From Candidatus Nanopelagicales bacterium (GTDB lineage: Bacteria > Actinomycetota > Actinomycetes > S36-B12): DNA of 64,000 nucleotides. Positions 10,836-37,606 of the stretch are shown here, piece after piece. Both the position numbers and the translations under genes were made by a program. The stretch spans positions 1,865 through 65,864 of the forward strand of contig JAFMDS010000005.1 of assembly GCA_017857175.1 (NCBI GenBank). The letters are read 5' to 3'. Each line of letters begins with the position of its first letter. Within the stretch, counting starts at the first letter, position 1. The notes under the pieces were generated by a model. The model did not search any database. It was not told the DNA's origin and worked only from the letters and a program-made list of their open reading frames with translations.

Positions 10836-13400
10836 ATGTCCACCAGTCAGAAGTCCACCGCTCCCGTAAGCGTCCCCGACAAGCCCAGTCTTGATGGAAT
10901 TGAAGTCAAGTGGGCAGCTGCTTGGAATGAACAGGGTCTTTACAACTTTGACCGCACCAAGACGCGAGATCAAGTCTTTTCAATAGATACCCCGCCCCCC
11001 ACGGTGAGCGGCTCATTGCACGTGGGGCACGTTTTCAGCTATACCCACACCGATTGCATCGCGCGCTACAAGCGGATGCGCGGATTTGAAGTGTTCTATC
11101 CCATGGGATGGGATGACAACGGGCTCCCCACCGAGCGTCGGGTGCAGAACTACTTTGGCGTTCGTTGTGATCCAAGTTTGCCGTACAAGCCCGATTACAC
11201 TCCCCCTGCAAATCCTGATCCCAAGAAGCAGGAACCGATCTCACGTCGCAACTTCATCGAACTGTGCGAGAAACTCACGGTCGAGGATGAAGTTGTCTTT
11301 GAAGACCTGTGGCGGCGCATGGGTCTGTCTATCGATTGGAACCAGACTTACCAAACGATTGATGGCAATGCCCAACGCGTGAGTCAACTCGCTTTCCTTC
11401 GCAACCTTGCCCGCGGTGAGGCGTATCAATCTGAAGCCCCCACGCTCTGGGATGTCACATTCCGCACGGCGGTCGCTCAAGCAGAATTAGAGGACAGGGA
11501 ACGCCCTGGCGCCTATCACCGAATCGCATTTAAACGCGCGGAGAACCCAAGCGAAAAAGTCTTCATTGAAACAACTCGTCCGGAACTTCTCGCGGCCTGC
11601 GTAGCGCTTGTTGCCCACCCAGATGATGAGCGTTACCAGCCACTTTTTGGCACAAATGTTGTCACACCAGTTTTCGGTGTTGAAGTTCCCGTGATGGCGC
11701 ACACCTTGGCTGATCCTGATAAAGGTTCTGGAATTGCAATGGTTTGTACTTTTGGTGATCTGGCAGACGTCACCTGGTGGCGTGAACTGCAACTTCCCAC
11801 TCGTCCGATCATTGGGTGGGATGGTCGAGTGACTTCAGAGACACCCGCCTGGATCACCACTAAAGCAGGCAAGGATCGCTTCGCGGCCATTGCAGGAACA
11901 ACAAGCTTCACGGCGAAGGCGAACATGGTGGAGGTGTTGCGCGAGTCAGGCGACATGGAAGGTGAGCCCAAGCCAATTACTCACCCCGTTAAATTTTTTG
12001 AAAAAGGCGATAAGCCCCTCGAGATCGTGACCACACGCCAGTGGTACCTGACCAATGGTGGCCGCAACGCAGAGTTGCGTGAAGAACTCCTTGCCCGCGG
12101 CAAGGAACTCATATGGCACCCAGCCCACATGGCAGTGCGCTATGACAACTGGGTGGACGGACTCAATGGAGACTGGCTGGTTTCCCGACAGCGTTTCTTT
12201 GGCGTTCCCATTCCCGTGTGGTACCCGCTCGATGCAGATGGCAACCCTGACTACAACTCGGTGATTGTTCCTACTGAGGATCAACTCCCCATTGATCCCA
12301 GTAGCCAGTGCCCCGACGGTTACACCGAGGACCAGCGCAATCAACCTGACGGATTCATGGGGGATCCCGACGTCATGGACACCTGGGCCACCAGTTCACT
12401 GACCCCACAAATTGCTGGCGGCTGGGAGCGCGACGAGGATCTATTCAACCGCGTATTCCCCATGGACATGCGACCCCAAGCCCACGAAATCATCAGGACG
12501 TGGCTGTTCTCCTCTGTCGTTCGCGCTCATTTAGAAAACAAGGAACTGCCTTGGGCGCATGCCGCGATCTCCGGTTGGATCCTTGACCCCGATCGCAAGA
12601 AAATGAGCAAGTCCAAGGGCAACGTTGTTACGCCCATGGAGATGCTCGATGAATACAGCTCGGATGCCGTTCGTTATTGGGCTGCCTCTGGTCGCCCGGG
12701 AACTGATACCGCATTTGATGTTGGCCAGATGAAAATCGGTCGCAGGCTCGCCATTAAGTTGCTCAATGCCACAAAATTTGTTCTCACAATTAGCCAGGGC
12801 GGAAATATTGAGAGCATCACCGAACCCGTTGATCAAGCGTTAATGGTGAAGCTCTCTGCAACCGTTGATGCCGCAACAAAGGCCTTTGAAGAATTCAATT
12901 ACGCCAAAGCACTCGATGTCGCTGAAACCTTCTTTTGGGAGTTCACCGATGACTACGTGGAATTAGTCAAGGAACGAGCCTACGGAGAGAAGGACGGTGT
13001 AAACACGGAGAGCGCACGCTCTGCCCTCTACATTTCGCTCACCACGCTGTTGCGCCTCTTTGCGCCTTTCCTGCCGTTCACGACGGAGGAAACATGGTCA
13101 TGGTTCAACTCAGACTCGGTTCACGCACAAGAATGGCCCGACGCAATGGCACTTGAAAGTGATGCCGATGCCGCAGTATTTACCGATGCTCAAACAGCAC
13201 TTGGTTTAATTCGCAAGGCAAAATCGGAGGCAAAGGTTTCCATGAAGGCTGAGGTCGCTACTGCCAGCCTCAGCGGTTCAACTGAACACGTTGAGCGCTT
13301 GAAGCTAGTTGAGAGTGACTTGGCCGCCGCAGGAAATGTGACCAGCTTGCTGTTCCAAACCTCAGGTGAGGAAATTCAGGCAGAAATTCAGCTCGCCTAA
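10836..13400 (+). CDS. valS: Valine--tRNA ligase (actinobacterial-type)
   Basis: HIGH motif (SLHVGHV), KMSKS motif, and an editing-domain-sized insert. The start is uncertain: ATG 10836 versus GTG 10812. It is divergent from folC with only about 50 nt between the two starts. Confidence 0.93.
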   Translation: MSTSQKSTAPVSVPDKPSLDGIEVKWAAAWNEQGLYNFDRTKTRDQVFSIDTPPPTVSGSLHVGHVFSYTHTDCIARYKRMRGFEVFYPMGWDDNGLPTERRVQNYFGVRCDPSLPYKPDYTPPANPDPKKQEPISRRNFIELCEKLTVEDEVVFEDLWRRMGLSIDWNQTYQTIDGNAQRVSQLAFLRNLARGEAYQSEAPTLWDVTFRTAVAQAELEDRERPGAYHRIAFKRAENPSEKVFIETTRPELLAACVALVAHPDDERYQPLFGTNVVTPVFGVEVPVMAHTLADPDKGSGIAMVCTFGDLADVTWWRELQLPTRPIIGWDGRVTSETPAWITTKAGKDRFAAIAGTTSFTAKANMVEVLRESGDMEGEPKPITHPVKFFEKGDKPLEIVTTRQWYLTNGGRNAELREELLARGKELIWHPAHMAVRYDNWVDGLNGDWLVSRQRFFGVPIPVWYPLDADGNPDYNSVIVPTEDQLPIDPSSQCPDGYTEDQRNQPDGFMGDPDVMDTWATSSLTPQIAGGWERDEDLFNRVFPMDMRPQAHEIIRTWLFSSVVRAHLENKELPWAHAAISGWILDPDRKKMSKSKGNVVTPMEMLDEYSSDAVRYWAASGRPGTDTAFDVGQMKIGRRLAIKLLNATKFVLTISQGGNIESITEPVDQALMVKLSATVDAATKAFEEFNYAKALDVAETFFWEFTDDYVELVKERAYGEKDGVNTESARSALYISLTTLLRLFAPFLPFTTEETWSWFNSDSVHAQEWPDAMALESDADAAVFTDAQTALGLIRKAKSEAKVSMKAEVATASLSGSTEHVERLKLVESDLAAAGNVTSLLFQTSGEEIQAEIQLA

Positions 13401-13840: not shown

Positions 13841-15412
13841 CTATCTGCGCAGGAATCCGCGTTTTTTTGAATCCGAACCGGAACCTGCACTATTTGACCC
13901 AGTCTGAGATTGCGTCATTGCGGTACTTGTGTCGGGACTGGAATCACTGTTTCGTGACACGGGAGCTACCCATGGTGCCAACTCATGATTAGGCATGCAG
14001 GCAATTGCTAAATCGTTGTAGGCGGCGCCCAGGGTCGTGTGTTCCAAGAGCTTGTGCATTTGAATGAGATTCGTTGCGGTCAAAACATCCTTCGTTGCAA
14101 GTGGAATCACCCCCACTACTGGTATACCAAGACCTGCAGCGAGCACCTGATCTGTTTCCATGCCCACATTTGCCACTGACTGGTTGACAATAATTCCGAG
14201 CTTTTCACGCGGAATACCCAACCCTGATTCATCTACCGGCGCCGTGATCTCGCGCAATGCGCGGGCCATACCCTGTACTGCGGTTGATGCCAGGCTGGTA
14301 ACAAAAAGAATTTCATCTGCTTCGACGAGTGCTACCTCAGCGATCAATGGATCCAGATACTGGACGCTCGTGTCCATGACCACAACGTCATACATGCGCT
14401 GCAAGCTGCGAACAATCGATCGATAGAAATCCGGACCCACCGTTTCAGCCGTTCGGGGTCGAATCGGAGCTAACAAAGTGTCAATTTCCAAACCCTCCGC
14501 ATGAACCAAGTTGCGGCGAATTCGTTCTTCATCCCAGATCGGTTGAATCCGAATATTGAGGGCCGTCGGCATGAACTGGCCAATCATTGAGGCAACCTGA
14601 CCATCCCGCGTGTCAAGATCAACCAGGCATACCGACAGGGGCTTGCCCGCTTTGCGCGAGGCGCTGGCAATCGAGGCAGCCAAAAGAATTGATGCTGTGG
14701 ATTTGCCCGACCCACCCTTGCTTGACGTGACTGTGATCGTGGTTTGGCCGGGCAATCGCGGCTTGCTCAATAATTCTCTGGATTCGTGGTTTTCTACATC
14801 GAGCGCGGGCCCTTGCGAAACCCGAGGACTCGTGTTGGATGCAGCGCGCGATTTCCCAATTGGGGGCAACGCAGGAATAGACGGAATACCAAACCCTGAG
14901 CGCTCAACTTCTACTGTCTGCACGACTTCTGATGCACCAGCGGAATCGGGCCTCACCCCGAATTCGACGAAGGAGTTGACAACACTCTGAATTGCGGGGA
15001 CCACATGGTCGCCAGGGGCATCTTTTGCGTCGATTTCAATGCATGTGATCCCCATGTTCAAAGCGCCGGGACCGCTGAGGTCAGCTAGGTGCCCTGAAAT
15101 AGTTTCACGGGCACTGACGGAGCCCGAGATATGGAAAACACTGGCTCCGGCATCGTTCATCGCGGTCATTGCCCTAGCAATTGCTAGAAGTTCGGATTCT
15201 TGGACTGGCGTGCCATCGGGGTTGAAATCGGTGAAGATCACAATTCGCGATCCAGAGTCAACGCGTCCACCCGATAGTGACTCCCACATGTGCGCGACAT
15301 TTTTTTGCAGAGACTGAACCGACCACTGGGCTGGAGCCTGCGAAATAAGCACGTGGATACGTGGGTCACCCACGACAATGACGCCAGGTAGTGAACTCTC
15401 GCCTGTCATCAT
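13841..15412 (-). CDS. ParA/MinD-family ATPase, CpaE/TadZ-like, with an about 230-aa non-canonical N-terminal region
   Basis: Deviant Walker A (TSSKGGSGKSTAS), Walker A' (CLVDLDTRDGQ) and Walker B-like (DVVVMDTS). C-terminal Ser/Thr-rich tail. The start is set at ATG 15412 (GAAAGG 8 nt upstream). The track GTG at 15460 has no RBS. Confidence 0.75.
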   Translation of the reverse strand: MMTGESSLPGVIVVGDPRIHVLISQAPAQWSVQSLQKNVAHMWESLSGGRVDSGSRIVIFTDFNPDGTPVQESELLAIARAMTAMNDAGASVFHISGSVSARETISGHLADLSGPGALNMGITCIEIDAKDAPGDHVVPAIQSVVNSFVEFGVRPDSAGASEVVQTVEVERSGFGIPSIPALPPIGKSRAASNTSPRVSQGPALDVENHESRELLSKPRLPGQTTITVTSSKGGSGKSTASILLAASIASASRKAGKPLSVCLVDLDTRDGQVASMIGQFMPTALNIRIQPIWDEERIRRNLVHAEGLEIDTLLAPIRPRTAETVGPDFYRSIVRSLQRMYDVVVMDTSVQYLDPLIAEVALVEADEILFVTSLASTAVQGMARALREITAPVDESGLGIPREKLGIIVNQSVANVGMETDQVLAAGLGIPVVGVIPLATKDVLTATNLIQMHKLLEHTTLGAAYNDLAIACMPNHELAPWVAPVSRNSDSSPDTSTAMTQSQTGSNSAGSGSDSKKRGFLRR

Positions 15413-15479
15413 CCCTTGTGCCTTTCTGCTGGGGAATGCAACTTTCCCCGACGCTGTCACGGAAAAGGCATCGTGCCAC

Positions 15480-15514
15480 TTGCTGCAAGCCTAAAACTAG
15501 TTGCTGCAAGCCTA
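15480..15514. promoter_or_regulatory. Two perfect 14-bp direct repeats (TTGCTGCAAGCCTA) with a 21-bp period upstream of the ParA-like gene
   Basis: Copies lie at 15480-15493 and 15501-15514. Each contains the near-palindrome TTGC-N-GCAA. They sit in the only sizeable gap (15413-15581) in this part of the operon. Confidence 0.4.
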
Positions 15515-15581: not shown

Positions 15582-15914
15582 TTATCGACTCACTCCTGCT
15601 GGTCCACGCAGAATGAATGCATTTCGGGCATCGCGCCCGGTCGGCACTGCCTCGGTGAAGGTCACTCGCTCCGCAGGTGTCGCAACATGTACGGGTGATC
15701 GTGAACTGTTCCCGGGCGCCTGACCAACGAGGGCCTGCACTCCTGCATTGAATGTGCGCGCAGCATTATGACTCTCACTGCGCAAGCTTTCATCGAAAAA
15801 TGTGCTGTTGTCATCATCAGCGGTGGTTTGCTCAATCTTGGCAACTATCGCTTTCTGATTCACCTTGGCAAAAACCGATTGTGGGCGCTGCGGATCACTT
15901 GGAGTCGCTGTCAT
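15582..15914 (-). CDS. Hypothetical protein (pilus-locus orphan)
   Basis: 110 aa, low complexity, no TM or motif recognised. Its start overlaps the upstream gene's stop by 4 nt. Confidence 0.45.
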   Translation of the reverse strand: MTATPSDPQRPQSVFAKVNQKAIVAKIEQTTADDDNSTFFDESLRSESHNAARTFNAGVQALVGQAPGNSSRSPVHVATPAERVTFTEAVPTGRDARNAFILRGPAGVSR

Positions 15915-16324
15915 AGTGACTCACGCGATGGAAACTCCACAGGCTCCGCAACCTGGGAGGGAATGCGTTCCAAGGCCACCAATTGGGCCGTAGCGTCAGT
16001 ATCAAGATCCAAATCAACAATTGAGACATGGCCCGGTACCCATGAGTGCCGATGCCACTGAATTTCCCAATTCACCGACTCTCCATTCTCGAGTGCGGCG
16101 ACGGCTGCTCCGTGCAGGAATGAACCCGCTGATACCTGCGCTCGTGCCGTGAATCTAATTGAGCGGGCAAAACCTCGAGGGCTCACGCAGTCGATTTCAA
16201 CGCGATGGAGTGCAAAAGCGTCATCGAGATCAGGGATACCAATAGGTTCCACCGCGGTGATGCGTCCCTCACCGGCGCGAACAAGATAATTGACTCCATC
16301 AGTTGATTCAAGCCATGACTTCAT
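15911..16324 (-). CDS. Hypothetical protein (pilus-locus orphan)
   Basis: 137 aa from ATG 16324, with a strong GGAGGTG RBS at 16328-16334. The track's TTG start at 16342 is rejected. No family recognised. Confidence 0.55.
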   Translation of the reverse strand: MKSWLESTDGVNYLVRAGEGRITAVEPIGIPDLDDAFALHRVEIDCVSPRGFARSIRFTARAQVSAGSFLHGAAVAALENGESVNWEIQWHRHSWVPGHVSIVDLDLDTDATAQLVALERIPSQVAEPVEFPSRESL

Positions 16325-16439
16325 GTTCACCTCCATGCTCAATCACATGCAACACTAAATTAATGGAATTTTTTTGCTGACTTTTTCCACGCTGTAGTTA
16401 ACGTATCGGCTCGATATCTGTTCTGCAAGACCAAAATCC

Positions 16440-17291
16440 CTACCGTGAAAGGCCAATAATTCCGAGATAACTGTCCCAGACCGATGACCCGAAAATCAGT
16501 CCGAAAAAGAATCCGAGAATCAAGTAGGGGCCAAATGCAATTTTCGCCCGAGCACCAGCCCGACCAGTGATGATGAGAAATAGCCCTACTCCTGCTCCTA
16601 GGACAAAGGCCGCAAGGAGTCCAATCGCTGCACTGGACAGGCTGCCCCATCCCAGTATTACGCCGAGAATGGGTGCCAGTTTGACATCGCCAAGGCCCAT
16701 GGCCCTTCCTCGAGTGGCAAGCCACAAACCCCCAATAACTCCCACCCACAGCGCCGCTCCCCCTAACGCGCTTACTGCAAGATTCGGAAACTCAGACCAA
16801 TCCCCGCCGAGTGCGAGCGCAATGAGTAAACCAACAATCGTGGTCGGATAAAGAAAATAGACAATCTCATTAGGCAGCTTGTACCAGCGCACATCGATCG
16901 CGAAAAGTGCAATAAGCGCTGAAGCCACAGTAATCAATAGCGGTAGCAGTGGGTTCACGAGTGAATCTTCAGGTGCCGTGACAAGTGCCCAGCCGGTGAT
17001 AACAATCCACATAATTCCCGTTAACGCCTCAATTACCGGGTATTGAATGGAAATCCGAGCAGAACAATGACGGCACCGCCCACGCAACAAAATCCAAGAG
17101 ACAATCGGAATGTTGTCACCTGAACTGATCTCAGAATCACATTGGATGCACCGAGAGCGAGGCCGCACAATGGACCGTTTCTCCGGCACTCGAGCGATCA
17201 CAACATTGAGAAATGAACCAACAATGGTCCCAATAATTCCCACGGTGAGTAGCAACCAAATGGTCACAACCGTTTGATCGTTTGACATCAC
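16440..17291 (-). CDS. pilD: Prepilin peptidase / N-methyltransferase (A24 family)
   Basis: N-terminal CxxC...CxxC cluster (RCIQCDS..GRCRHCS), polytopic membrane core, and the catalytic Asp motif GLGDVKL. Confidence 0.9.
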   Translation of the reverse strand: MMSNDQTVVTIWLLLTVGIIGTIVGSFLNVVIARVPEKRSIVRPRSRCIQCDSEISSGDNIPIVSWILLRGRCRHCSARISIQYPVIEALTGIMWIVITGWALVTAPEDSLVNPLLPLLITVASALIALFAIDVRWYKLPNEIVYFLYPTTIVGLLIALALGGDWSEFPNLAVSALGGAALWVGVIGGLWLATRGRAMGLGDVKLAPILGVILGWGSLSSAAIGLLAAFVLGAGVGLFLIITGRAGARAKIAFGPYLILGFFFGLIFGSSVWDSYLGIIGLSR

Positions 17292-18346
17292 TGTGGTGTG
17301 AAGGGACTCTGTGATTGGTCAGTCCATGCGTCAAGCACAATCGGTTCCAAATCGTGCGACGGGGTATAAGAAATCGAAGCCCGCTGGCCAAGTTCAGAGT
17401 TTTCTGCATCACCTAATACCCCCGGAATCGCGATGCTCGCCAAGGACCAGTCCCGGGAACTACATTCCTCGGGAACCATCAACTGATGTTTGCCTCGCAC
17501 TTCAGCACTGTGATCATCATCGTTGGAGCAAGAAACCACGGTGACCAAACCCTGACTAGCCAGTGAGCGTGCAATGTGTACGGCCTCAGCTCGGGTAAAA
17601 CCGCAATGTCCGGCTAGTTCATCGAGACTGCGAACTCCATCGGCACCATTAAGCATTGCAAGGATTTCTGGGATCGCGGAGTCCATGCGGCTCACCTGAG
17701 CCGCGGAAAGGACCTCATTTCGATCTAAAACAACTGAACCAGGATGATCACATGCCACGCTCACATGCTCCTGAGGAGTGTCATGTGAAAGGGCGGCTGC
17801 GTCCTGGGCCATTCTCCTGTACCGGACTTCAATCATTCCCAGTATCTGATTGAGATCGAGCGGCAACGTACAGACACTTGAAGTTATTCGACCACTATCT
17901 GGGACCACCTCTGCCTGATGTAATAAAAGTAATGACCCAACACTCGCAACGACGAACTCCTGATGTACGGCCGCAAGTTGGTCGACACTCACCAAACCGG
18001 ATTCAACTACTGCCACAGACAATGAATTGAGTCGTGCCTCTAGTTCGAGAATTTCGGCACTATCGCCCAAGGTGATGAGCTCGGATGACATGAGTCGAGC
18101 AAGGACTCCCGGCTCAAAACCATCAATCGCAGCCGCATAAATTCGACCTTCAAAAAAGTACAGATCGCCCAGACTCGAGTCGCCGTGGCTGACAATTCGA
18201 AGGGATCCAGTGAACGAAAGATCACGGGCACGGATTGCATGTTCAAGAATCGTGGAATTGACTGGAAGCTGCGATCCCGTCAGAGGTCCTTCTACTTTGG
18301 ATGTTGGCCCGGGATCGGCACTATTCGCCTGTTGGCGCCGAAACAT
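17288..18346 (-). CDS. PATAN/DUF4388-like domain protein with a possible C-terminal winged-helix
   Basis: The segment LTGSQLPVNSTILEHAIRARDLSFTGSLRIVSHGDSSLGDLYFFEGRIYAAA resembles the DUF4388 consensus as I recall it (G.L..f.l..ll......tG.L.v.....g.iyf.dG.iv.A). Start moved to ATG 18346, with an AAGGAGGTG RBS at 18352-18360. Confidence 0.45.
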   Translation of the reverse strand: MFRRQQANSADPGPTSKVEGPLTGSQLPVNSTILEHAIRARDLSFTGSLRIVSHGDSSLGDLYFFEGRIYAAAIDGFEPGVLARLMSSELITLGDSAEILELEARLNSLSVAVVESGLVSVDQLAAVHQEFVVASVGSLLLLHQAEVVPDSGRITSSVCTLPLDLNQILGMIEVRYRRMAQDAAALSHDTPQEHVSVACDHPGSVVLDRNEVLSAAQVSRMDSAIPEILAMLNGADGVRSLDELAGHCGFTRAEAVHIARSLASQGLVTVVSCSNDDDHSAEVRGKHQLMVPEECSSRDWSLASIAIPGVLGDAENSELGQRASISYTPSHDLEPIVLDAWTDQSQSPFTPQ

Positions 18347-18436
18347 CACAACACCTCCTTTAACTGCCTCATAGGTTTTCCGCACCCATTTGAGGGACAG
18401 GTCCGACAAAGGCCCGTTTCCATGAGTATCGGCTCA

Positions 18437-19159
18437 TTAGCCCAAGAGGTGCTCTGGAATTCCAATCTCGTGCAGCGGACAGCGGGCAGCCCCCGCGTGA
18501 TCGACCGTTCCTGGCATGAAACCAGCCTTGCCGGTGCACCCAGGGCGTGGATCTTCACGATACGTGCGGCCGATACCGCTATAGGCATCGATGTAGGTCA
18601 CAGCCCTGGCCTGCTCTGCTATTTCAGATCGATTGGTTATGGCGAGAACATGCTCCGGAACAATTTCATAGGCACCCTCAGCGGCCGTAACGATCCACCG
18701 ATACCCCGAAACGTCAAAATCCCCCACGACCGTTCGATTCTGGCCTCCGGCGATTACCACGGTAACCGTGCACTTGGTCCCGATCAAAGGGCTCACATCG
18801 AGACTTTGGCCATTGGACAATTCGTAGGTGAATGCCTGAGTCCCCGAGTAGCGGCGGTAACCCAATGACTTGTCGTAGCACTTGCCCATGTGTTCACGAA
18901 TGAGCAGTTCAGATTGCTCAAACGAGGCGCTGTCTCCCTCAATGAGTAATCGAGGTGCTCCTTGGTGAAGCCGAATACGATCAGATAATTCCCAATGATA
19001 CGAGCGCACGAACCGACGACCCTCGAGATCAGATGTCTCCGCAGGGACCTCGGTGCCCCTAATGCGCGCGACAAAATGATCGGTCGCCCACATCCATAGG
19101 AGCACTCCGGGAGAATCGGTAAAGCTCCAAGGAATTGGTACAGCTTCTGGAGCGCTCAT
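18437..19159 (-). CDS. Hypothetical protein (pilus-locus orphan)
   Basis: 240 aa, soluble, no family recognised. A C-terminal Cys/His cluster (CTGKAGFMPGTVDHAGAARCPLHE) may bind metal. It overlaps the sigma-like gene's stop by 4 nt. Confidence 0.5.
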   Translation of the reverse strand: MSAPEAVPIPWSFTDSPGVLLWMWATDHFVARIRGTEVPAETSDLEGRRFVRSYHWELSDRIRLHQGAPRLLIEGDSASFEQSELLIREHMGKCYDKSLGYRRYSGTQAFTYELSNGQSLDVSPLIGTKCTVTVVIAGGQNRTVVGDFDVSGYRWIVTAAEGAYEIVPEHVLAITNRSEIAEQARAVTYIDAYSGIGRTYREDPRPGCTGKAGFMPGTVDHAGAARCPLHEIGIPEHLLG

Positions 19160-20831: not shown

Positions 20832-20862
20832 TTATGAAAGATCCTGGTTATGAGAGATCCTG
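20832..20862. repeat. Imperfect 15-bp direct repeat pair (TTATGARAGATCCTG, 16-bp period) in the gap after pilA
   Basis: Copies lie at 20832-20846 and 20848-20862, with 14/15 identical. The pair lies between the pilA stop (20933) and the next start (20768). Confidence 0.4.
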
Positions 20863-20932
20863 AAAATGAGTATGTTGGTCGACGAATTCCTCCGCCGACC
20901 AACACTCAAATGACACGATTTCAGGTCTCGAA

Positions 20933-21367: not shown

Positions 21368-21500
21368 GTTGAACTCCTGTCGAAGGACCCCTCATTGCTT
21401 CGGGGTAGCCCACCCACTCTGGGTAGACATTGAGGGTTTCGGACCAAAAAGACCAACAGATACCCGTCGTCGCGGAAAATTGTTAAAAATTTCTTCCCAA

Positions 21501-29008: not shown

Positions 29009-29010
29009 CC

Positions 29011-29691
29011 GTGCTCAGAGATCGCATTCGCCTCGTCACAGTTAGTCTGATTTTGGGTCTAATAGGCCTTACCGCAGTCTTGTGGTTTGTCGTCATTTCA
29101 CCTCGCCTTTCTATTGCAGGTGAATTGGAATTAAAGAGCGCCGACATCGAGCTGACTAACCTTGGCTTGTTAAAGCGACAGCGCGATTTTCTCGATTTAG
29201 CCGATCGCGCACCACAAGCCGCGGCTGAGGCTCAAATTCTGTTTTCACGGATGCCGGAAACAGCCCAGTTGCCTTCCCTTCTCGATCAAATCGGTCAAGC
29301 AGCCCTAGAGGCCGGGATCAGCCCCAGCAGCATTCAGGTGATCAATGCTTCCATTCCAGTAAGTACAACGGAAGCCACCCAAGGGAGTGCCAGTGAAACT
29401 CAGAAAGCTCTCGGAGTGCAGTTGGCCACTCTTGAATTGGACATGACCGTTGACGGATCCCAAGCAAATCTCCTTACTTTCATGGACAATCTGCAGGAAC
29501 TTGATCGCGCTTTACTTATCACCTCGACAGACCTCGTTGATCTCCCGCTGCAGGTCGAAGGGAGCGAACAAACATTGACCATTTCCGCCACATTATTTGT
29601 GCTGGAATCAAGCCTTCCTGACTTAGTCACGAACGCTCAGGCAATAATCGATCGAGCACAAGCTGAGTCCGGCGTAGCACAAGCTTCTTGA
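29011..29691 (+). CDS. pilO: PilO-like pilus assembly protein
   Basis: GTG start 2 nt after the pilN stop. Single N-terminal TM, a coiled-coil, then an alpha/beta region. The call rests on architecture and position only. Confidence 0.5.
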   Translation: MLRDRIRLVTVSLILGLIGLTAVLWFVVISPRLSIAGELELKSADIELTNLGLLKRQRDFLDLADRAPQAAAEAQILFSRMPETAQLPSLLDQIGQAALEAGISPSSIQVINASIPVSTTEATQGSASETQKALGVQLATLELDMTVDGSQANLLTFMDNLQELDRALLITSTDLVDLPLQVEGSEQTLTISATLFVLESSLPDLVTNAQAIIDRAQAESGVAQAS

Positions 29692-29717: not shown

Positions 29718-30515
29718 CTAAACAGCCGGCAGGACCGCTCTTAGGCGTACAGCATCCGCATCCCCCATGAATTGGGTTATTGCGGCTCGCACTAAGTGTG
29801 CGGCTGCCGCAAAGTCCTGCGGCAGTTCATCGATCAATGACGCGCAGTGGGTAGCAAGCTCCCATCGAATTTGAACCGTGAATAGATTACGGTCCCCCGC
29901 AGCATGCGCCGATTCGACCAAATAGGCATCAAGGGCAGTGAAGTCGCTCGCGAACATCAAATTAATTGCCTGCTCAATATTTCCAGAACTATGCGCAGTG
30001 AAAGCCTGCACGCTCAATGTCGAGGCTGCCTGCATTTGCTTTCGAGCATAACTCTGCGGGGTCATTCCTTCAAGCCGCTGTGCCGCGTGCGCGGCGATAG
30101 CGTCACTCGATGGAAAAGCAATGTTGTCAAAAGGTTCGACGTCAAGCATTAACGCCTGGAATCCCTGAATGCCAACGTTACTCAGAATCGGCTCAACTTG
30201 TGAACGTACAGCGAGAAGTGCCTGGGCGATAGACAAATTTGGCTCAGCCGTGGGTTCTGAGCATGCGCGTGCAATTTCTTCACCTAACTGAAAATACTTG
30301 CGGTATGAAGTACCCGCGCTGACAATCAGTGCTTCCCACAAGGCACCTTGTATTCGCATCAAATCGCTACCCAGCGCACATGAGAGTGCGCCGACCAGGT
30401 CTCCCGAAGCTCCCTTGCTCACCGCAATCGTTCTGAGAATTTCCGAGCCCTGAGTGCATAGGTCTACAAAATTCTGGCTGTCAGGACTCGAGCCCGCTTG
30501 TGACACCGTGCTCAC
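29718..30515 (-). CDS. Hypothetical all-helical protein, last gene of the minor-pilin operon
   Basis: 265 aa, no TM or signal peptide, Ala/Leu-rich helical composition. GTG start with an AGGAG RBS. No family recognised. Confidence 0.5.
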   Translation of the reverse strand: MSTVSQAGSSPDSQNFVDLCTQGSEILRTIAVSKGASGDLVGALSCALGSDLMRIQGALWEALIVSAGTSYRKYFQLGEEIARACSEPTAEPNLSIAQALLAVRSQVEPILSNVGIQGFQALMLDVEPFDNIAFPSSDAIAAHAAQRLEGMTPQSYARKQMQAASTLSVQAFTAHSSGNIEQAINLMFASDFTALDAYLVESAHAAGDRNLFTVQIRWELATHCASLIDELPQDFAAAAHLVRAAITQFMGDADAVRLRAVLPAV

Positions 30516-30564
30516 CCATTTCTCCTGACGCTGACTGACTCGATACTTCTGGCTGAGGAAAACT

Positions 30565-32718
30565 CTATCCTTCTACCACAATTACGAGCCGCCTGATCTC
30601 TTCAACTCCCCCAGAGATCACCGTGTAGCGCACCACAACCTGACCGGGCTCACTCGCCGTCACCGTGAGTTCCCCAGCAACGTTGGTCACCGTGGCGTTC
30701 CCGAACACTACTTCGGGGTTGAAAAGTTGAGCTCCCCCCGGGTAATTCGCCAGGAGTTCGTAGGTGCTGGATCCAGTCTGCTGGAAGTTCACATTGACTT
30801 CTGCGAAGCGCTTCACTTCCCACGGCTCCCCAAATAGGGATGTCATATAAGGAGGGACCAAAAAAGTTAGGCGCTCGTCATAGGAATATCTCTTTGAGTA
30901 CCCGCCGTAATAACCCACAACGCATCGGTATTTCTGGGACAAAGATCCCCAAAGGTAGATGTAGCCATTTCTGTACCCGTAAGACGGATCCTGAGCGCCA
31001 AAGCACGCGTCAACTGCCAGCATGGCCACGTTGAACACGGGGTTGTCGGCATTCGACTCTTTCCAGTCGCGAACCCACCTTCGCCTGTTATCAAATGGAC
31101 GGTAAATGTAGGTGAAGCGACCAGAAACAGAGCCTAAGATCGTTTGCGAGGCTGGATCCGGTTTGCCGTACGTTGCACCTGGTGTTGTTGAAGACGTCGC
31201 ATCTCGCAGGGAACTAGTTAGAATCACATTATTTTCCGCTGCAATTGTGACCTGACCCATCACATCACCTTCAACGTAAATGTCCCCTTTGGTGCAGCTA
31301 TCGCCATACCAAGGATTATTCACATCAGCGTAGTAAGACGGAAATCCTTTTGGAGCGCTCGATGAATAGAAGCCACTGTTTTCTTCAGAATCGCTCGGGA
31401 CGACGAATGGGTACTTGTTTGAACTATTCGAGCCGTATTTCCTGGCACAGGATGGCGCAGTGCCCGAGGGCCACACATTATTTGTGTCATAGTCGTTATT
31501 GGGATCGTCCACTCCTGAGGATGGAAGATCTTGAACATAGATCACCAAGTCCTCGAAATCAGAAATGGTGATCGTGCCGGTTGTGTGTGGCTGACTCGTG
31601 TCCTGCAACACTCCACCGCAATTCGCTCCCGACTGTTTGGTATCGGGGCTCGTTACCTTGATAACTCCCACTCCGCCTTGCACCGCAAACCTCAATCGAG
31701 TGGGTCCCGTGAACACGCACCCAAAGTCGCTTGCCTTCTCTTTCATGAGGGCGGCCGTGGCCGATGCTGAGGGGAGTTCCAGAACCGGTTCATAACGCGG
31801 GTTGCGATTGGTAATGTCGCTGCCTGTTGGACCAAACGAATTGCCTTGAAAGCCCGTGCTCGAATTCCACGTCGCGCCATCAATTGCATTGGAATACAAA
31901 GGTTCAGTGGTCGTGAGATAGCGATGATCGGCCGGGCAGCCAATCTCACCCGGAGAGAGTCCTTCCTCCTCGCTTCGACATGACGAGGAAATGGCTCCAG
32001 CGTCAATTGATCCAGATAGGTTAGTGGCTTGAAGGCGCCACACGTCGTTCGTGTGAATTTTTCCAGCGATGCGCTCCGAACTGTAGATTCCCGCCCACTG
32101 ACAGAAATTCAGGTTTCGCTGGTTACCAACACCGCCCGTGGGGTCAACATCGCCCGATTCATACCAGTATCGCGAGCACAGTTGATTTGCAAGTGCTTGA
32201 CTGGTGAGCCCAGTTCGACCGCCTGAGTTGGAGCTCTGTGAGTAGGCGCCGGGAACATCCGGAGAGGGTGTTTCAATGTCACTGAGATAGACGTAGTCCA
32301 GTGTGGAGCGCTTGGTCAGGACTGCCTCAACGGTATGGGTGACATCACCAGACTTGCCAGTGGAATACACGTGAATCTCACCGCCTGCACCAGCTCGCGA
32401 TGTATCGACAGAGTAGGTGTAGGTGCCTGCGGAATCACCGCCAGACACATTCACATAATCAAAGAACGCCGGATTCTCAAGATCAAGTTCTTCTTCATAT
32501 CCCGGCTGTTGAATTCGAACCAGATAGTCCTGGATCCCAGCTTCTGCTGCCGCAAGGGCAGCATATGAGCGCTCGCTGCGATCAGAAGGCACGATCTGCT
32601 GCACAGCGACCTGGGTAACGACCAGCACCAAGAGCACGAGCACGACACTCCAGGCGAGAACAAAGATCATTGCCGCACCACTGTCATCTGATCTCCGGAC
32701 GTTGTCTAACTTCATCAC
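30565..32718 (-). CDS. Large pilus-associated protein with a PilX-N-like hydrophobic N-terminus (candidate tip protein or adhesin)
   Basis: 717 aa. The N-terminus SDDSGAAMIFVLAWSVVLVLLVLVVTQ resembles the PilX_N pattern but lacks Glu+5. A large beta-rich, Gly/Ser/Tyr/Asn-rich extracellular part with several Cys pairs follows. The start overlaps the upstream minor pilin's stop by 4 nt. Confidence 0.5.
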   Translation of the reverse strand: MMKLDNVRRSDDSGAAMIFVLAWSVVLVLLVLVVTQVAVQQIVPSDRSERSYAALAAAEAGIQDYLVRIQQPGYEEELDLENPAFFDYVNVSGGDSAGTYTYSVDTSRAGAGGEIHVYSTGKSGDVTHTVEAVLTKRSTLDYVYLSDIETPSPDVPGAYSQSSNSGGRTGLTSQALANQLCSRYWYESGDVDPTGGVGNQRNLNFCQWAGIYSSERIAGKIHTNDVWRLQATNLSGSIDAGAISSSCRSEEEGLSPGEIGCPADHRYLTTTEPLYSNAIDGATWNSSTGFQGNSFGPTGSDITNRNPRYEPVLELPSASATAALMKEKASDFGCVFTGPTRLRFAVQGGVGVIKVTSPDTKQSGANCGGVLQDTSQPHTTGTITISDFEDLVIYVQDLPSSGVDDPNNDYDTNNVWPSGTAPSCARKYGSNSSNKYPFVVPSDSEENSGFYSSSAPKGFPSYYADVNNPWYGDSCTKGDIYVEGDVMGQVTIAAENNVILTSSLRDATSSTTPGATYGKPDPASQTILGSVSGRFTYIYRPFDNRRRWVRDWKESNADNPVFNVAMLAVDACFGAQDPSYGYRNGYIYLWGSLSQKYRCVVGYYGGYSKRYSYDERLTFLVPPYMTSLFGEPWEVKRFAEVNVNFQQTGSSTYELLANYPGGAQLFNPEVVFGNATVTNVAGELTVTASEPGQVVVRYTVISGGVEEIRRLVIVVEG

Positions 32719-33398
32719 AACAGGTTCACCAACCTCACCTGTTGTCGTACTGAATTCAGTGGATCAGTGGTTGCCCCAAGAACAATGGTGACATATTGCG
32801 GGACCTCGCCCTCGTCGAGTGATAACGCACCAGCTGACAGAGGTGTGACATTGCGCATGCTGGCATTGCAATCACCCTCTGTTTGACAAGCCCAAATTTC
32901 CATGGAGATGGGCGGATCAGATTCACTAGGGGTGGTCAGCAGGAACCTCCTCGTCGCACCAAGGGGAATACCCGTGCTAGACCAGTCTCCCGACCACTGC
33001 CACTCGCCATCGATGAGTGTTCCCTGTGCGACATCTGAAATTACATCGGTTGTTCCGTCAAGCTGCGGCAAAGTCATGACCCGCACTTTGTAGGGGATGT
33101 CGCTGCGCTGGCCTGTGCCTGAGTATGAATACAGCACGATTGACTCTGGGCTAGCTTGGACTATCGCCGAGTCACTTCCCACAGGAATGGCCGCATAACG
33201 CACTAATCTCGAAACCCATTCCGCAGCATTTTGCGCTTGTGACAATTCATTCGACTGAGACGTCACTTGCCTGATCCCTGAAAAAATATTCAGCATTGCC
33301 GTCGCGCTAATGATTGCCAAAATGCTGAAAACAGCCAACGACACCATGAGTTCGATGACGGTGTACCCACCGTCCTTTGAAAAATTACGCCCGCTCAC
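32715..33398 (-). CDS. Minor pilin / pseudopilin (PilW-like)
   Basis: Prepilin N-terminus MSGRNFSKDGG followed by YTVIELMVSLAVFSILAIISA (G/Y cleavage site, Glu+5). 227 aa. Confidence 0.75.
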   Translation of the reverse strand: MSGRNFSKDGGYTVIELMVSLAVFSILAIISATAMLNIFSGIRQVTSQSNELSQAQNAAEWVSRLVRYAAIPVGSDSAIVQASPESIVLYSYSGTGQRSDIPYKVRVMTLPQLDGTTDVISDVAQGTLIDGEWQWSGDWSSTGIPLGATRRFLLTTPSESDPPISMEIWACQTEGDCNASMRNVTPLSAGALSLDEGEVPQYVTIVLGATTDPLNSVRQQVRLVNLL

Positions 33399-34708
33399 GG
33401 AATTTCCTCAACCGGAGTCAGCGCAAATGCCACGACAGTGACTCCTGCGGGATCACCATTTTCCGGTGGTGTCAGCGGCCCAACAGGCGTAATCGGCCCA
33501 ACGCCTTGCGCGGTGAAATCCCAGGAGCCAAAAGGTAGCGCAATTTGCAACACACCCTCGGAATCTGCAGGACCCACGTTGAATGACTCAAGACCACATG
33601 CCCCATCTGAGCCGGTGTAGGTCACCTCTACTACCCCAGCGGGCTCCAGCCCTTCAAACCTGACATAAGCCGACGGTAGCCCGACAGAGACCACACTCCC
33701 TGACACCAATCCAAAGCCCGTTGCGGACGATCCAAGAGCGCTCGGATCTTGATCGGCACACGTTCCCAGCCATGCTTCGAAGCCCGCAGTCGATGGCCAT
33801 AGACCGGCTACTGCCTCGCCGACCGGCGTTTGCCTCGTTGCAGCTCCCGTCACCAATTCCTGCCACGTGACATTCAGTGAGGCAGGCAGTTGAAATTCTT
33901 CATTGGATGCACCAAAAATCACCGATGCAGCCGGCGCGTACTCGAAAGCAACACGGCTCACTTCCTGGGAATTGATCTGTACTTGATCTGTATCTCCGCC
34001 ACTACTGCGGGGAACATAGGTAACACCGGACTGATTCTTTTCGATAGATACATATAACGTGCCGCTTGGTGCAAGGTTTGGTAGAAAAACGCACCCGTCA
34101 ATACCCGTGAGTACTTGAAAATTGTTTTCTGGGTGTGAGGCATCCCGCCCAGTAACGACTACATCGGTCACCGGCTGCGCGTATTGATCACCCACTTGGA
34201 CAGTAATCGCCCCTTCAATTCCCGTTCGAGGAACGCCATCAGAGCTGATGACTGCGTCGATAACCTGTGGGGCTCCCAGAGTGCGGCCCAATACTTCGAC
34301 ATTGACACGCAGATAGTCCTGACCTGGCTCGGCTGTTGAACAAGCACTCACCCGCTGATTGACCCCCACCCAGTTGGCCGTGGTCCGCACTGTGAATCCA
34401 GATTGCACAGTTTCAGTCAATCCAATGGCAACATTGGATGCCCCCACTACACGAAGACTCTCAACGTGTGAGCGCGCAACATTCGCGGCAAGCACCCTGT
34501 CCGAATTTTCTCGGACGGTGGCCAACGCCAGGAGAAGAATCGTGATGGTCGCTGCGGAGACTGCAATGAATATTCCTAAGGCCACGATCACTTCAACCAA
34601 AGTGAAGCCCCCATCCGAGGAACATGACGCACTCGAGCAGGTGGAATTCGAGCAGGTGGCACGCGTGCGGCAGGTCAAGACTCGGGTCCGCTCAACATCA
34701 ACTGTCAT
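33395..34708 (-). CDS. Large minor pilin (PilV-like) with a long Cys-rich leader
   Basis: Prepilin motif SSDGG followed by FTLVEVIVALGIFIAVSAA. The start is set at ATG 34708 (437 aa). The track start at 34909 would place about 100 residues in front of the cleavage site. Confidence 0.7.
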   Translation of the reverse strand: MTVDVERTRVLTCRTRATCSNSTCSSASCSSDGGFTLVEVIVALGIFIAVSAATITILLLALATVRENSDRVLAANVARSHVESLRVVGASNVAIGLTETVQSGFTVRTTANWVGVNQRVSACSTAEPGQDYLRVNVEVLGRTLGAPQVIDAVISSDGVPRTGIEGAITVQVGDQYAQPVTDVVVTGRDASHPENNFQVLTGIDGCVFLPNLAPSGTLYVSIEKNQSGVTYVPRSSGGDTDQVQINSQEVSRVAFEYAPAASVIFGASNEEFQLPASLNVTWQELVTGAATRQTPVGEAVAGLWPSTAGFEAWLGTCADQDPSALGSSATGFGLVSGSVVSVGLPSAYVRFEGLEPAGVVEVTYTGSDGACGLESFNVGPADSEGVLQIALPFGSWDFTAQGVGPITPVGPLTPPENGDPAGVTVVAFALTPVEEIP

Positions 34709-34818
34709 TGTTTTCACCGCCCACAATCTCGATTCACCGTGCGCCGGCCGGGCACGTCTGAACGTGAGGTCTAACTCATAATGAACAGGCCTCACTGAGA
34801 GTTTCGGCCCAAAGCCCC

Positions 34819-34924: not shown

Positions 34925-37606
34925 ATGAGCTCATTTCTGCGCATGGTCGGTAAAAAGGTTTACCCGTCCACCACCTACCGGAATAACAGCCCAGCCGCAC
35001 GTTCACTCCAAGTTCGAGCCGGCTTGGTAACCGTCTTTTGTGTGGTCACAGGAGTCCTGGCTGTGGCATATGCCGTCGCCATCGTGTTCAACACCGATAT
35101 CACCTCGAACAACTCTCCTGATCTGAACGCAACCCAGCTCATCTCAGCCCTGGCTCTTGCCATTTTCAGTGTTTTTCTCCCCCAGGCCATTTTTCGAACC
35201 AGAAATGCAGCCAGCACTCGAGAAATACTTGACAACCCCACGGCGCCCGCCCGCCCGTGGCGCACCACCACAATAACTTTCAGCGCAGTACTCGTCGGGG
35301 CAATGCTCGCGGGGCTGCAATTTCAAGCTCCATTAGCCCTAACATTCTTTGGTCTTGCGTTGATGGCAAAGTTGGTTTTCACTAATCGCCGAGCACTGAC
35401 CACGGATCCCAATGCCCGATTCCATGGACTGGTGGAGGCTTGGACATCCGCGGCTATCGCAATTGCCGCATTTTCGATTGTACGCCCGCTCTCTGCATTA
35501 GTCGTAGAACACAATTCAATATGGCCTTTAGTGTTCGCCGCACTCGTGGCCATGTATCTCGGTCTGGCATTCAACGCTGTTGAGCGATGGATAATCTCAG
35601 AAAAAGCGCCCTGGGCCTTTGCGCAGGACAGCATTGACACCCGACGTGTTGTGGTAGCCCTGGTCAGTGCACTCATCACATGGACAGTCGTGTTCGCGAG
35701 CGATCGTGTGGGCGGCTTTACCGTTGCCGCAAATCAAATTACTCAAAATAGTGTGGGCTTTGGCGTATTTATCGCATTCTGGCTACTCCTGTGGTTCACG
35801 TCGATTCGGATGTGGCGATATGAAGCACGCCGAACGTTGCGCATGTGGCGAGAACATCAAGCTGAAATTCTTATTCGCCTGTCACATGGCACGCTCAATG
35901 CCGAACTTGCGCGGAAAGCTGCCTTGTCCACCACCGCTCGCTTGGCACTCAGCGTGTTTGCCGCAACTCGCAGCATGGTCATCATGCGAGTCCCTGAAGG
36001 AGCCACGGATTCTTGTATTGCTTCGCGGGGCGTGTTTGAGAATTCATCTCCCGCCAAGGCGAAGGACATGGTCATTAGGCCCAATCTCCATATCCCTTTG
36101 AATTCGACTCCCAACCAAACGGAGAACAGCAGCATTGTAATTTCCGGTTGGCTTTGGCCCGGCTCATTCATGACGCGTTCGCATCGCTTGGTCAGCGAAT
36201 TCGCGGCTCTCGCGAACACCGCACTTTTTGTTCCAGCACTTGCCGCACATGAAGAGCCCAAGTCAATTGCATTTGACAGACTTTTTGACTCCATCTATCA
36301 GTGGCCTAATCTTGATGCCTTCGAAGAAGCTGTTGAGCGGCTCCAGATTCGAGTTGATTCCGCGCCACAGAGTAGCTCTCTACTCATTGGCTGCTATGCC
36401 ATTGATGATTTTGGTGCACTTGCCGGCGGAAAATTTGAGCAGGCAGCCCTTGCACAAATTCATCGGCTCATTCAGGGGTATAAAGACTTTGCAGGGCACG
36501 ATCTATTTGTTGCCTACGAAACCCCAGGCAGAATCTGGCTTGCACTGTCCAGCGGCCCTATCATCAGGACAGGCATTGACCTGCTCAATAGCCTCCAAAC
36601 ACGAATCAATGAGAGCGGCTCCGCTCCGTCGCACAAAGTGGACCTTGAAGTCCATGTCAGTGTCTCCTTTGGCTATTCAGTGCATCAGGTCGACGCAATA
36701 TCCCTCACGGACTTAATGGCTGCATGCCGAGAAAGACTCAATAAAGACATTTCACTGCGAAACTCATTTGATCCAAGTGAGCTATTACCCATAGATATCA
36801 GCCCAGAAGATTTTGCGGCACCAGGACCCGATGCAGTTTCATCGGGCAATGTCCTCGTTGAATTTCGAAATGCGCGCGATGCAGGTGCCAAGAATTTCAC
36901 ATCATGGCTCTACCCCCTAACCGGAAATAGCGGTGACAAAACACACGGAATTTTTGTCGAGCTTGGTTGGGATCACACCGTTGGGCAGTCATCATTCCTA
37001 GATCCGCAAAGTTTTATGTCTCTTGTCAATAGACAGGTTGAATTGGCCGCGGACACTGCGCTGCTTGCCTGTGAAAAACTCGCAGGAGTCATCAGTGAAT
37101 TGGACACCCTGGGTCACTTCAACATCCCTGTAGTGACACGAATGCCATCAATTTTGCTTAATCCAGAGTCGGGTTTATATGCACTCCCCAATATTCTCGG
37201 CAGAGCACTTGACAGAAGACAGGCCTCTCGCACGGTGGTTGTGTTGGATTCCATCCCCCGTGGCGCCGGCCAAGCAGTGCGGCTCTTGTGCGACCGAGGG
37301 ATCAGCGTTGCTGTGACTTCTAGTGCCGCAATCGGTGCTGATCCTGTTGATTTGGATAACTGGCACCGATGGGCAATTATTTTTCCCCCAACACTGGTTA
37401 ATGGCCACGATGGCCTCGACTCCCTAATTGTTCAACAAACATCACTGGCCATCGCATCAACGGACACACGCCTCATGGCGATTGTGAACGAAATGACAGA
37501 CCAACAAAGCCTCAGCGAAGGACCCATTAATTGGTTCATCGACCAATCTGTCGGCTACGGGAGCGTAGATCAGGTAATGGAAATTCAGACTTCGAAATCG
37601 AGCTGA
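34925..37606 (+). CDS. Polytopic membrane protein with degenerate GGDEF-like and EAL-like cytoplasmic domains
   Basis: About 330-aa N-terminal multi-TM region. The GGDEF-like block is [24 protein letters not shown]...[17 protein letters not shown], with GGDEF replaced by ETPGR. The EAL-like block is [16 protein letters not shown]...VVVLDSI...[18 protein letters not shown], with EAL, ExxE and DDFG residues not conserved. Confidence 0.55.

Follow-up and report, generated by a model that had tools for sequence, protein, structure and literature searches.

Introduction

Pili of the type IVa (T4aP) kind have been little studied in Actinomycetota. Type IV pilus (T4P) clusters under WhiG/FliA-family control have been described in Rubrobacter, with a diguanylate cyclase/phosphodiesterase (DGC/PDE) gene inside the cluster, and also in Actinoplanes (PMC8325347). 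WhiG sites in T4P clusters have been predicted in the Cellulomonadaceae, Jonesiaceae, Sanguibacteraceae, Cryptosporangiaceae, and Rubrobacteraceae (PMC13595943). The cultivated freshwater Nanopelagicales are reported to have Tad-type pilus genes only, in genomes of 1.2–1.6 Mb with 40–51% GC (PMC12817590). Here, we investigated a 64,000-nucleotide (nt) stretch of contig JAFMDS010000005.1 (GCA_017857175.1) from a Candidatus Nanopelagicales bacterium, referred to below as the window, in which a complete monoderm type IVa-like pilus gene set lies at 13397–37606 between the convergent genes valS and clpX. We call this ~24-kb segment the island, and all coordinates are window positions.

Other Actinomycetota are already known to have T4P clusters with predicted WhiG control, and the present locus joins them with a variant regulatory module. 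We found no paper describing the island or the sigma factor triad that it encodes. The pilus machine itself is textbook, and nothing here overturns current understanding. We consider it probable that the island was acquired long ago and has since been inherited vertically, and that it is a type IVa-like pilus system with its own putative regulon, a candidate GGDEF-EAL sensor with seven transmembrane segments (7-TM), and possible ParA-like positioning, placed in a variable gap between valS and clpX.

The island lies between two conserved backbone blocks

The inventory of the island combines an open reading frame (ORF) map with profile searches against Pfam and NCBIfam. The left flank consists of mreBCD-pbp2-rodA, ndk, DUF4233, folC, and valS, and the right flank of clpX, clpP, clpP, and tig, which is the gene order given in an earlier note on this DNA. 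As that note also observed, both junctions are convergent and almost without spacer. On the left, CTAA at 13397–13400 holds the overlapping stop codons of valS and g143a; on the right, the gene for an 893-amino-acid (aa) protein is convergent with clpX across a 3-nt gap (37607–37609). Again in agreement with the note, the edges show no sign of mobility. No integrase domain was found by profile searches among the island ORFs scanned, no direct repeat was found at the island edges, and ARAGORN and Rfam scans of the window gave no tRNA or Rfam element nearer than the tRNAs past tig at 41.8 kb. The note had further remarked that valS is inverted relative to folC. This is no peculiarity of the window, as folC(−)/valS(+) is the universal backbone orientation in the loci we compared.

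About one-third of the island consists of non-pilus genes, and ~8 kb of these are conserved. The earlier inventory is sound for the pilus parts but left these ~8 kb of conserved genes unaccounted for.

The island encodes a complete pilus machine

Hidden Markov model (HMM) matches were obtained for PilB, PilC, PilD, PilM, PilO, PilT1, PilT2, and the pilin N-terminus, mostly above curated cut-offs. The exceptions are the NCBIfam equivalog models of PilB and PilC, for which the best score falls below. Every core part listed previously is present as an intact ORF, and no secretin is found in the island, as had been stated. The island genes are all intact, and their order is kept in several related lineages. 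The island encodes all parts predicted to process (PilD), polymerize (PilB, PilC, PilMNO, and the minor pilins), and retract (PilT1 and PilT2) a pilus made of a classic short-leader pilin.

The major pilin PilA (20933–21367, − strand; 144 aa) scores 33.8 with TIGR02532 (cut-off 16.3). Its leader, 15 aa long, reads MLSRIYTPRDQRESG↓FTLIE (the arrow marks the cleavage site), with E5, and the C-terminal part holds a pair of cysteines, Cys108/Cys133. The cleavage context, RESG↓FTLIELLVVVAIIG, has the features of a class III signal, including a short leader, G↓F, E5, and a hydrophobic helix. Directly 3′ of pilA, a strong 15-pair hairpin followed by a T-rich tail (20872–20905, −) is a likely terminator. 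Apart from this hairpin, a scan for sigma-70 promoters and terminators was uninformative. The prepilin peptidase/N-methyltransferase PilD (16440–17291, −) matches A24_N_bact (PF06750, E = 8e-34) and Peptidase_A24 (PF01478, E = 2e-9), and a reading of its sequence finds the CxxC...CxxC cysteine pairs and both aspartate motifs intact.

The motor operon pilT2-pilB-pilT1-pilC occupies 21501–26789 (−). PilB (23963–25633, −), which starts 15 codons downstream of the start of a 571-aa ORF and is 556 aa long, matches T2SSE (E = 7e-136) and has an MshEN domain, a Walker A motif, and CPAC...CSRC. Among NCBIfam models, type_IV_pilB scores highest for it (601 bits), which falls short of the equivalog cut-off of 676 but exceeds the 538 bits of GspE. 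We did not find a complete MshEN cyclic di-GMP (c-di-GMP) motif (RLGxx(L/V/I)(L/V/I)xxG...) in PilB and therefore do not claim direct c-di-GMP control of this protein. PilC (21501–22718, −) matches T2SSF (E = 6e-66), and its best models are those of T4P PilC, with an NCBIfam equivalog score below the cut-off. Both retraction ATPases exceed the TIGR01420 cut-off of 319. PilT1 (22705–23970, −) scores 480 and has AIRNLIRE at residues 353–360, and PilT2 (25626–26789, −), a PilT/PilU-family paralogue that lacks AIRNLIRE, scores 385.

The alignment/platform subcomplex is encoded by pilM-pilN-pilO (26979–29691, +). PilM (26979–28148, +) matches PilM_2 (E = 1e-46) and TIGR01175 (135 against a cut-off of 133), and PilO (29011–29691, +) matches PF04350 (25.8 against 22). 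PilN (28145–29008, +) was tentatively assigned from its VNLLP motif, its single transmembrane (TM) segment, and its position.

The minor-pilin operon (29718–34711, −) has the same order in loci L081, L083, L084, L085, and L086 of related lineages. It encodes a 227-aa minor pilin (32715–33398, −) with an N_methyl match (E = 7.5e-6) that scores above the Pfam cut-off and a second minor pilin (33395–34711, −) with a visible prepilin motif; both carry G↓(Y/F)T.(I/V)E. The second lies in a 504-aa ORF but most likely starts at 34711, giving ~438 aa, and its orthologues are mostly 426–464 aa long. The two minor pilins were named as such in the earlier note and are upheld here. Its "PilX-N-like" label for the 717-aa membrane-anchored protein (30565–32718, −), which has one N-terminal TM segment, rests on appearance, as this protein has no PilX_N HMM match. 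The operon also contains g265 (29718–30515, −), encoding a cytoplasmic protein without assigned function.

The valS-clpX gap in relatives

We recovered the valS neighborhoods of 80 other actinobacterial species by a ValS search of one-genome-per-species contigs and mapped all window proteins onto them. In 29 of the 80 species, valS(+) and clpX(−)-clpP-clpP-tig are convergent at a distance of 15–6265 nt, and pil genes are absent. Among the 29 are metagenome-assembled genomes (MAGs) labeled Nanopelagicales (L006, L008, and L016) as well as Marmoricola, Nocardioides, Arthrobacter, and Cellulomonas species, and many of these island-free loci have the backbone mreBCD-pbp2-rodA, ndk, folC(−), valS(+) upstream. 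The island follows valS directly, with the same gene order, in the three closest species (L001–L003; ValS 70–73% identical), which are two Nanopelagicales-labeled MAGs and the 3.55-Mb chromosome OZ257128.1. This comparison bears out the proposal in the earlier note of a lineage-specific insertion, with the island absent from some Nanopelagicales-labeled MAGs and present in the closest species.

The right junction was reached through homologues of the 893-aa protein. Two contigs, in which this protein is 70% and 40% identical, show it convergent with clpX-clpP-clpP-tig, and in a third (48% identical) a small GerE-type gene intervenes before clpX. PilB-centered loci (L081/L082, L083, and L086) have the internal gene order of the window island, as does every recovered contig with a relative of the island PilB or 893-aa protein. 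In all, the same island is found at one or both junctions in at least five or six related lineages.

In island-free relatives, the genes that fill the valS-clpX gap are related neither to each other nor to the window genes, and the gap is therefore a variable spot. We had considered these genes as a possible insertion scar and rejected the idea, as they have no window homologue and no common identity. Because the island is found at this one site throughout a broad clade, and other lineages lack it there, the simplest reading is one old gain at the valS/clpX site. The gene order shared by all recovered island-bearing contigs places this gain deep rather than at the species level.

Several relatives carry additional genes within the island. 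On OZ257128.1 (L083), a transposase gene (rve + HTH_38, possibly IS30-type) lies between pilC and pilA at 14225–15430 of that locus, and pilO is followed by two more inserted genes, a DUF559 gene and another small one; the rest of the island is intact. In the more distant relatives L084 (8324–9937) and L085 (8335–9933), the 893-aa gene is separated from the minor-pilin operon by an extra gene of 532–537 aa with a faint NlpC/P60 match, which the window does not have. L086 has a 679-aa gene between pilC and pilA.

Composition and divergence of the island

The island has a GC content of 52.6%, compared to 53.9% for the flank genes, and a GC content at third codon positions (GC3) of 52.7%, compared to 55.2%. 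Its tetranucleotide usage correlates with the rest of the window at r = 0.92, compared to 0.95–0.96 for control segments of equal size. PilB, PilC, and PilT1 of the closest relatives are 73–76% identical to those of the window, ValS is 70–73% identical in the same genomes, and the accessory island proteins are 27–60% identical. Island and flank proteins co-diverge, which is the pattern of vertical inheritance. The suggestion in the earlier note that the insertion is not recent is borne out by a composition (GC3 and tetranucleotide) close to that of the flanks, the lack of mobility genes, tRNAs, and flanking repeats, and the co-divergence with the flanks.

A shared putative promoter motif precedes six island units

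Comparison of the island's intergenic DNA with that of relatives yielded an 8-mer, (G/T)CCGA(A/T)AC, that is identical at seven of eight positions to the WhiG/FliA −10 element GCCGATAA. It is found before g143b-g110(-parA-g143a) at 16403–16410, before the winged helix-turn-helix (wHTH) gene and pilD at 18426–18433, before pilA at 21436–21443, before pilT2-pilB-pilT1-pilC at 26797–26804, before pilMNO at 26894–26901 (+; GCCGATAC, directed toward pilM), and before the minor-pilin operon at 34801–34808. Six of the 11 matches to KCCGAWAC in the window thus fall within ~950 nt of sense-strand island intergenic DNA, where ~0.1 would be expected. Although the DNA around it has diverged, five or six relatives retain the motif at the orthologous positions before pilA, pilT2, pilM, and g143b. 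Since the motif ends 7 nt ahead of the pilT2 ATG, its position suggests that the pilT2 transcript is leaderless. A search for canonical WhiG promoters (TAAA-N13-17-GCCGATAA, at most two mismatches) found none upstream of the pil genes.

The divergent control region between pilT2 and pilM (26894–26944) holds the pilM-directed motif and, adjoining it, two perfect tandem copies of the 17-mer GGTCAGTTGGTCACTTC (26911–26944, −). This tandem repeat may be an operator; relatives do not have the same repeat. Two other direct repeats were seen in the island. CAGGATCT(C/T)TCATAA occurs twice at 20832–20862 (−), upstream of the g144-sigma operon, and L083 has a different tandem repeat at the equivalent site. 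TAGGCTTGCAGCAA occurs twice at 15480–15514 (−), upstream of the ParA-like gene.

A putative divergent sigma factor and its two partner genes

The gene g390 (19156–20328, −) encodes a 390-aa putative sigma factor, WhiG/FliA/SigF-like (group 3), whose N-terminus bears an additional domain of ~130 aa. The g390 family profile, searched against the PDB, matches Streptomyces venezuelae WhiG (6PFV_A) at E = 5e-17 over residues 41–276, almost all of its length, with SigF and FliA (1RP3, 1e-12) as the next matches. With a profile built from close orthologues only, WhiG is still the top match (E = 7e-5), and distant family members match Pfam Sigma70_r2/r3/r4. Because of the WhiG match of the family profile and the region 2, 3, and 4 matches of distant members, g390 is predicted to be a group 3 sigma factor of very divergent sequence that carries this additional domain. 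The family is small, as an exhaustive search of 1.84 billion representatives gave just 58 related clusters.

The sigma gene is flanked by two partners. The first gene of the triad, g144 (20334–20768, −), encodes a small protein without assigned function and is positionally conserved in all relatives. The last, g240 (18437–19159, −), is translationally coupled to g390 and encodes the best-conserved protein of unassigned function (58–72% identity), with invariant residues C208, H221, C227, and H230. No Pfam domain was found in any of 115 homologues of g240, and its AlphaFold2 model (predicted local distance difference test score [pLDDT] 82) has no significant fold match in the PDB. The zinc-binding anti-sigma (ZAS) motif HxxxCxxC was not found in the island proteins neighboring the sigma factor.

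Related arrangements occur outside the island-bearing clade, at L087 and L088. In L088 (1972–4475), a g240 homologue follows a related sigma gene (E = 1e-29). In L087 (8838–11574), a g144 homologue precedes a related sigma gene (E = 2e-10), next to an A24 prepilin peptidase gene. Given that a g240-like gene accompanies the sigma gene in L088 and a g144-like gene does so in L087, g144-sigma-g240 looks like an inherited module. It is possible that the triad regulates type IV filament loci more widely, and its place beside a prepilin peptidase gene in L087 hints that such a module is general to these loci in Actinomycetota.

The 893-aa membrane protein, the ParA-like ATPase, and other accessory genes

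The last gene of the island (34925–37606, +) encodes an 893-aa membrane protein with ~7 TM segments (residues 37–294), a sensor-like domain, and degenerate GGDEF and EAL folds. Its AlphaFold2 model (pLDDT 81) predicts these two folds in tandem, as Foldseek matched it to DosP, MorA, PA0575, RbdA (PA0861), and LapD with E values of 1e-12 to 1e-9 and a probability of 1.0, the range being 1e-12 to 1e-5 when the FimX EAL domain is included. Neither Pfam GGDEF nor EAL (PF00990/PF00563) matches the protein or its 86 homologues, and its family profile retrieved nothing useful from PDB sequences. The catalytic signatures GG(D/E)EF and EAL...DDFGTG are absent from the protein; read against the secondary structure of the model, its sequence has ETPGR at the GGDEF position and TSSAA at the DDFGTG position.

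A 539-aa ParA/MinD-like P-loop ATPase (13841–15460, −) has a ~230-aa N-terminal domain of unassigned fold and a deviant Walker A motif, SSKGGSGKST. It matches AAA_31 (E = 2e-10) and MinD TIGR01968 (E = 8e-13), with NCBIfam scores far below the cut-offs. In the PDB, it matches 8RAY best, another ParA family member, and the search gave nothing useful beyond generic ParA. It is 58–73% identical in relatives.

The remaining accessory genes are small or lack a firm family assignment. The gene g143a (13397–13828, −), the last of the left-hand unit, encodes a 143-aa cytoplasmic protein with no assigned function and no Pfam or NCBIfam match. Its orthologues, 38–45% identical, stand straight after valS in L001, L002, and L003. 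Two further genes, g143b (15911–16342, −) and g110 (15582–15914, −), encode small conserved cytoplasmic proteins with no assigned function; they have orthologues in L001, L003/L083, and L081, and a size-matched ORF lies at the same position in L086. A 373-aa protein (17288–18409, −), translationally coupled to pilD, has a wHTH-like segment at about residues 245–295. A DUF4388 (PF14332) match to its N-terminal region scored 23.1 bits against a cut-off of 25 and was found in one of five orthologues, whereas HTH_IclR or MarR-type matches were found in three of the five. We therefore set aside the DUF4388/PATAN assignment, which was unconfirmed in orthologues, and kept the winged-HTH segment, which was reproduced.

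A proposed control circuit and rival readings

We propose that g390, with the co-inherited g144 and g240, would read the sigma-28-like −10 element (G/T)CCGA(A/T)AC before six island units, giving a self-contained regulon. With moderate confidence, we infer that the island operons belong to a single regulon whose promoters are sigma-28-like, and the simplest candidate for reading them is the sigma factor encoded in the island. The degenerate 7-TM GGDEF-EAL protein could act as a membrane sensor or a c-di-GMP-type receptor that feeds into pilus activity, as FimX and LapD do, and the ParA/MinD-like ATPase could position or license the machine, as TadZ/CpaE do for Tad pili. The sensor/receptor role of the 893-aa protein and the partnership of g144 and g240 with the sigma factor are suggested by analogy only. 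The lack of a detectable fold relative and the conserved Cys/His cluster make g240 a possible new anti-sigma factor. Taken together, a sigma-28/WhiG-derived triad, g240 as an anti-sigma factor, transcription of all pilus operons from a modified promoter, and input from the 7-TM receptor might make up an undescribed, self-contained T4P control circuit, which we put forward tentatively and hold at somewhat less than an even chance.

Several points weigh against our reading of the island and its regulation. By itself, g390 matches only sigma region 4 (E = 1e-4, under the curated cut-off), and a search of PDB sequences with g390 alone gave no match. The canonical −35 element TAAA is missing at the motif sites (the reference promoter is TAAA-N15/16-GCCGATAA), where there is a weak GGG at −22 to −20. 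The RsiG-like c-di-GMP motif E(x)3S(x)2R(x)3Q(x)3D is absent from g143a, g110, g143b, g144, g240, g265, the wHTH protein, g390, and the ParA-like ATPase. PilN has no HMM match. The ParA-like ATPase matches CpaE_hom_Actino (TIGR03815) at E = 2e-4 and 20.7 bits against a cut-off of 154, and its positioning role is drawn by analogy only. Finally, the choice of one gain over multiple precise losses follows parsimony and not a dated tree.

Had the island been ancestral at valS-clpX in this part of the Actinomycetes and then cleanly deleted in many lineages, we might expect what is seen in three respects: T4P clusters occur in several other actinobacterial families (PMC13595943 and PMC8325347), the 0–6 kb of unrelated genes in the gap show that genes come and go there, and the island has no trace of foreign composition. 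However, the 29 species with valS-clpX adjacency span several orders and retain no pil remnant. Even Cellulomonas, of a family reported to have T4P clusters, has gaps of 3.7–6.2 kb with no pil genes. Many independent precise losses are also less parsimonious than one gain, and we regard ancestry followed by loss as improbable. A recently acquired mobile genomic island is a far weaker candidate still. It would explain why a large contiguous block is lacking in many relatives, but neither integrase, tRNA, nor flanking repeats accompany the block, its GC, GC3, and tetranucleotide usage are near flank values, and the same junctions recur in lineages where ValS is ~70% and the 893-aa protein 40% identical. 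On composition and conservation, we rejected recent horizontal transfer, which is extremely improbable, and retain the single old gain.

Doubts about the sigma factor and about the function of the pilus are less easily settled. A canonical WhiG/FliA encoded elsewhere in the chromosome could read these promoters, with g390 a non-cognate or non-functional sigma factor (e.g., a sigma-derived regulator or a decoy). The motif differs from the canonical −10 element GCCGATAA (PMC8325347) at a single position, sites in T4P clusters of five families are predicted for canonical WhiG (PMC13595943), and g390 is divergent enough that curated sigma models miss it. On the other hand, in each relative that we examined, g390 lies among the operons that carry the motif and is inherited together with them, WhiG and FliA are its closest structural-sequence relatives, with matches over regions 2–4, and the missing −35 TAAA fits an altered region 4. 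Reading by the canonical factor is possible but, on this evidence, doubtful, and we favor control by the island's own sigma factor. The output of the pilus could be particle adhesion, twitching, or DNA uptake. A main role in DNA uptake, as a competence pilus like those of other monoderms, would fit the fact that retractile T4P commonly mediate DNA uptake (PMC6370729) and the link of Tad pili with comEC and comEA in related freshwater Actinobacteria (PMC8591293); the window also has a single-stranded DNA-binding (SSB)-family gene at 61651–62157, unlinked to the island. Such a main role is nevertheless rather unlikely, given that no comEA, comEC, or dprA lies in or near the island, that PilMNO, two PilT-family ATPases, and a large minor-pilin-associated protein make up a T4aP and not a ComG-type architecture, and that ComGA/ComGB models score far below those of PilB/PilC. 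DNA uptake as one function among others is compatible with all these points.

Other features of the window

The earlier note had described the organism as rhodopsin-carrying, and a bacteriorhodopsin-family gene is indeed present at 62993–63868 (−; PF01036, E = 4e-39). Its picture of a small-genome, planktonic host is doubtful, given the 53% GC of the present lineage and the 3.55-Mb chromosome of a relative that carries the same island.

Between mreB and ndk lies an Abhydrolase_9 family gene (7255–8601, −), which only the closest relatives (L002–L004), and none of the other backbone loci, were found to have in that place. Beside the island, this gene is the second element that the lineage has added to the conserved backbone. 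Past tig and two tRNAs, a molybdopterin oxidoreductase and cytochrome b561 pair (MsrPQ-like) and a VKOR gene (42225–44206) keep their order in relatives, and this region is ordinary backbone. ARAGORN called a 92-nt tRNA-Arg(GCG) at 45268–45359 (+), within a DUF3159 gene (45107–45778). The call is probably a false positive, since Rfam reported nothing there at its gathering threshold.

Comparison with known systems

That a rhodopsin-bearing relative has an intact, conserved island for retractile T4P suggests that these lineages also associate with surfaces or particles or scavenge DNA. The clean presence or absence of the island at one chromosomal site makes it a good marker and a natural experiment on how a 24-kb machine is gained. 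Its regulation offers the more useful lead, namely the compact candidate circuit of sigma factor, partner proteins, promoter motif, and degenerate GGDEF-EAL sensor.

In its machine, the island resembles the T4aP loci of Firmicutes such as Clostridium perfringens and the Streptococcus sanguinis pil locus, which likewise have PilB, PilC, PilD, PilT, PilMNO, and major and minor pilins, and no PilQ (PMC6916266 and PMC3244431). It differs in phylum and in having two PilT-family ATPases, and going by the descriptions of those loci, the ParA-like ATPase, the sigma triad, and the GGDEF-EAL membrane protein are found only here. Like TadZ/CpaE and the actinobacterial Ssd, the ATPase is of the ParA/MinD type with a deviant Walker A motif and an extra N-terminal domain, and lies in a type IV filament locus; unlike theirs, this locus is of the T4aP and not the Tad type.

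FimX and LapD are degenerate GGDEF-EAL c-di-GMP receptors, and FimX controls T4P assembly in Pseudomonas and Xanthomonas. The 893-aa protein shares with them the tandem GGDEF-EAL folds, the loss of catalytic signatures, and a genetic tie to a pilus or adhesion system. However, the likeness is one of predicted fold, with no detectable sequence similarity (Pfam GGDEF and EAL are silent), and the 7-TM N-terminus is unlike FimX.

The closest systems in regulation are the WhiG-controlled T4P clusters of Rubrobacter radiotolerans, R. xylanophilus, and Actinoplanes missouriensis (zoospore pili). These also have monoderm T4aP-type genes, no secretin, and several operons behind a sigma-28-type −10 element (GCCGATAA-like), and in R. 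xylanophilus a GGDEF/EAL-type gene, dgcX, is in or linked to the cluster (PMC8325347 and PMC13595943). In the present island, by contrast, the sigma-like gene lies within the cluster, is far more divergent than canonical WhiG, has an extra N-terminal domain, and travels with two partner genes of unassigned function. The neighboring proteins have no RsiG-like motif, the putative promoters lack a −35 TAAA, both signatures of the GGDEF-EAL protein are degenerate, and the chromosomal site at valS/clpX is clade-specific. With the candidate circuit, the WhiG-c-di-GMP-pilus link that Rubrobacter has made known could be extended to a sigma lineage that is new and much more divergent.

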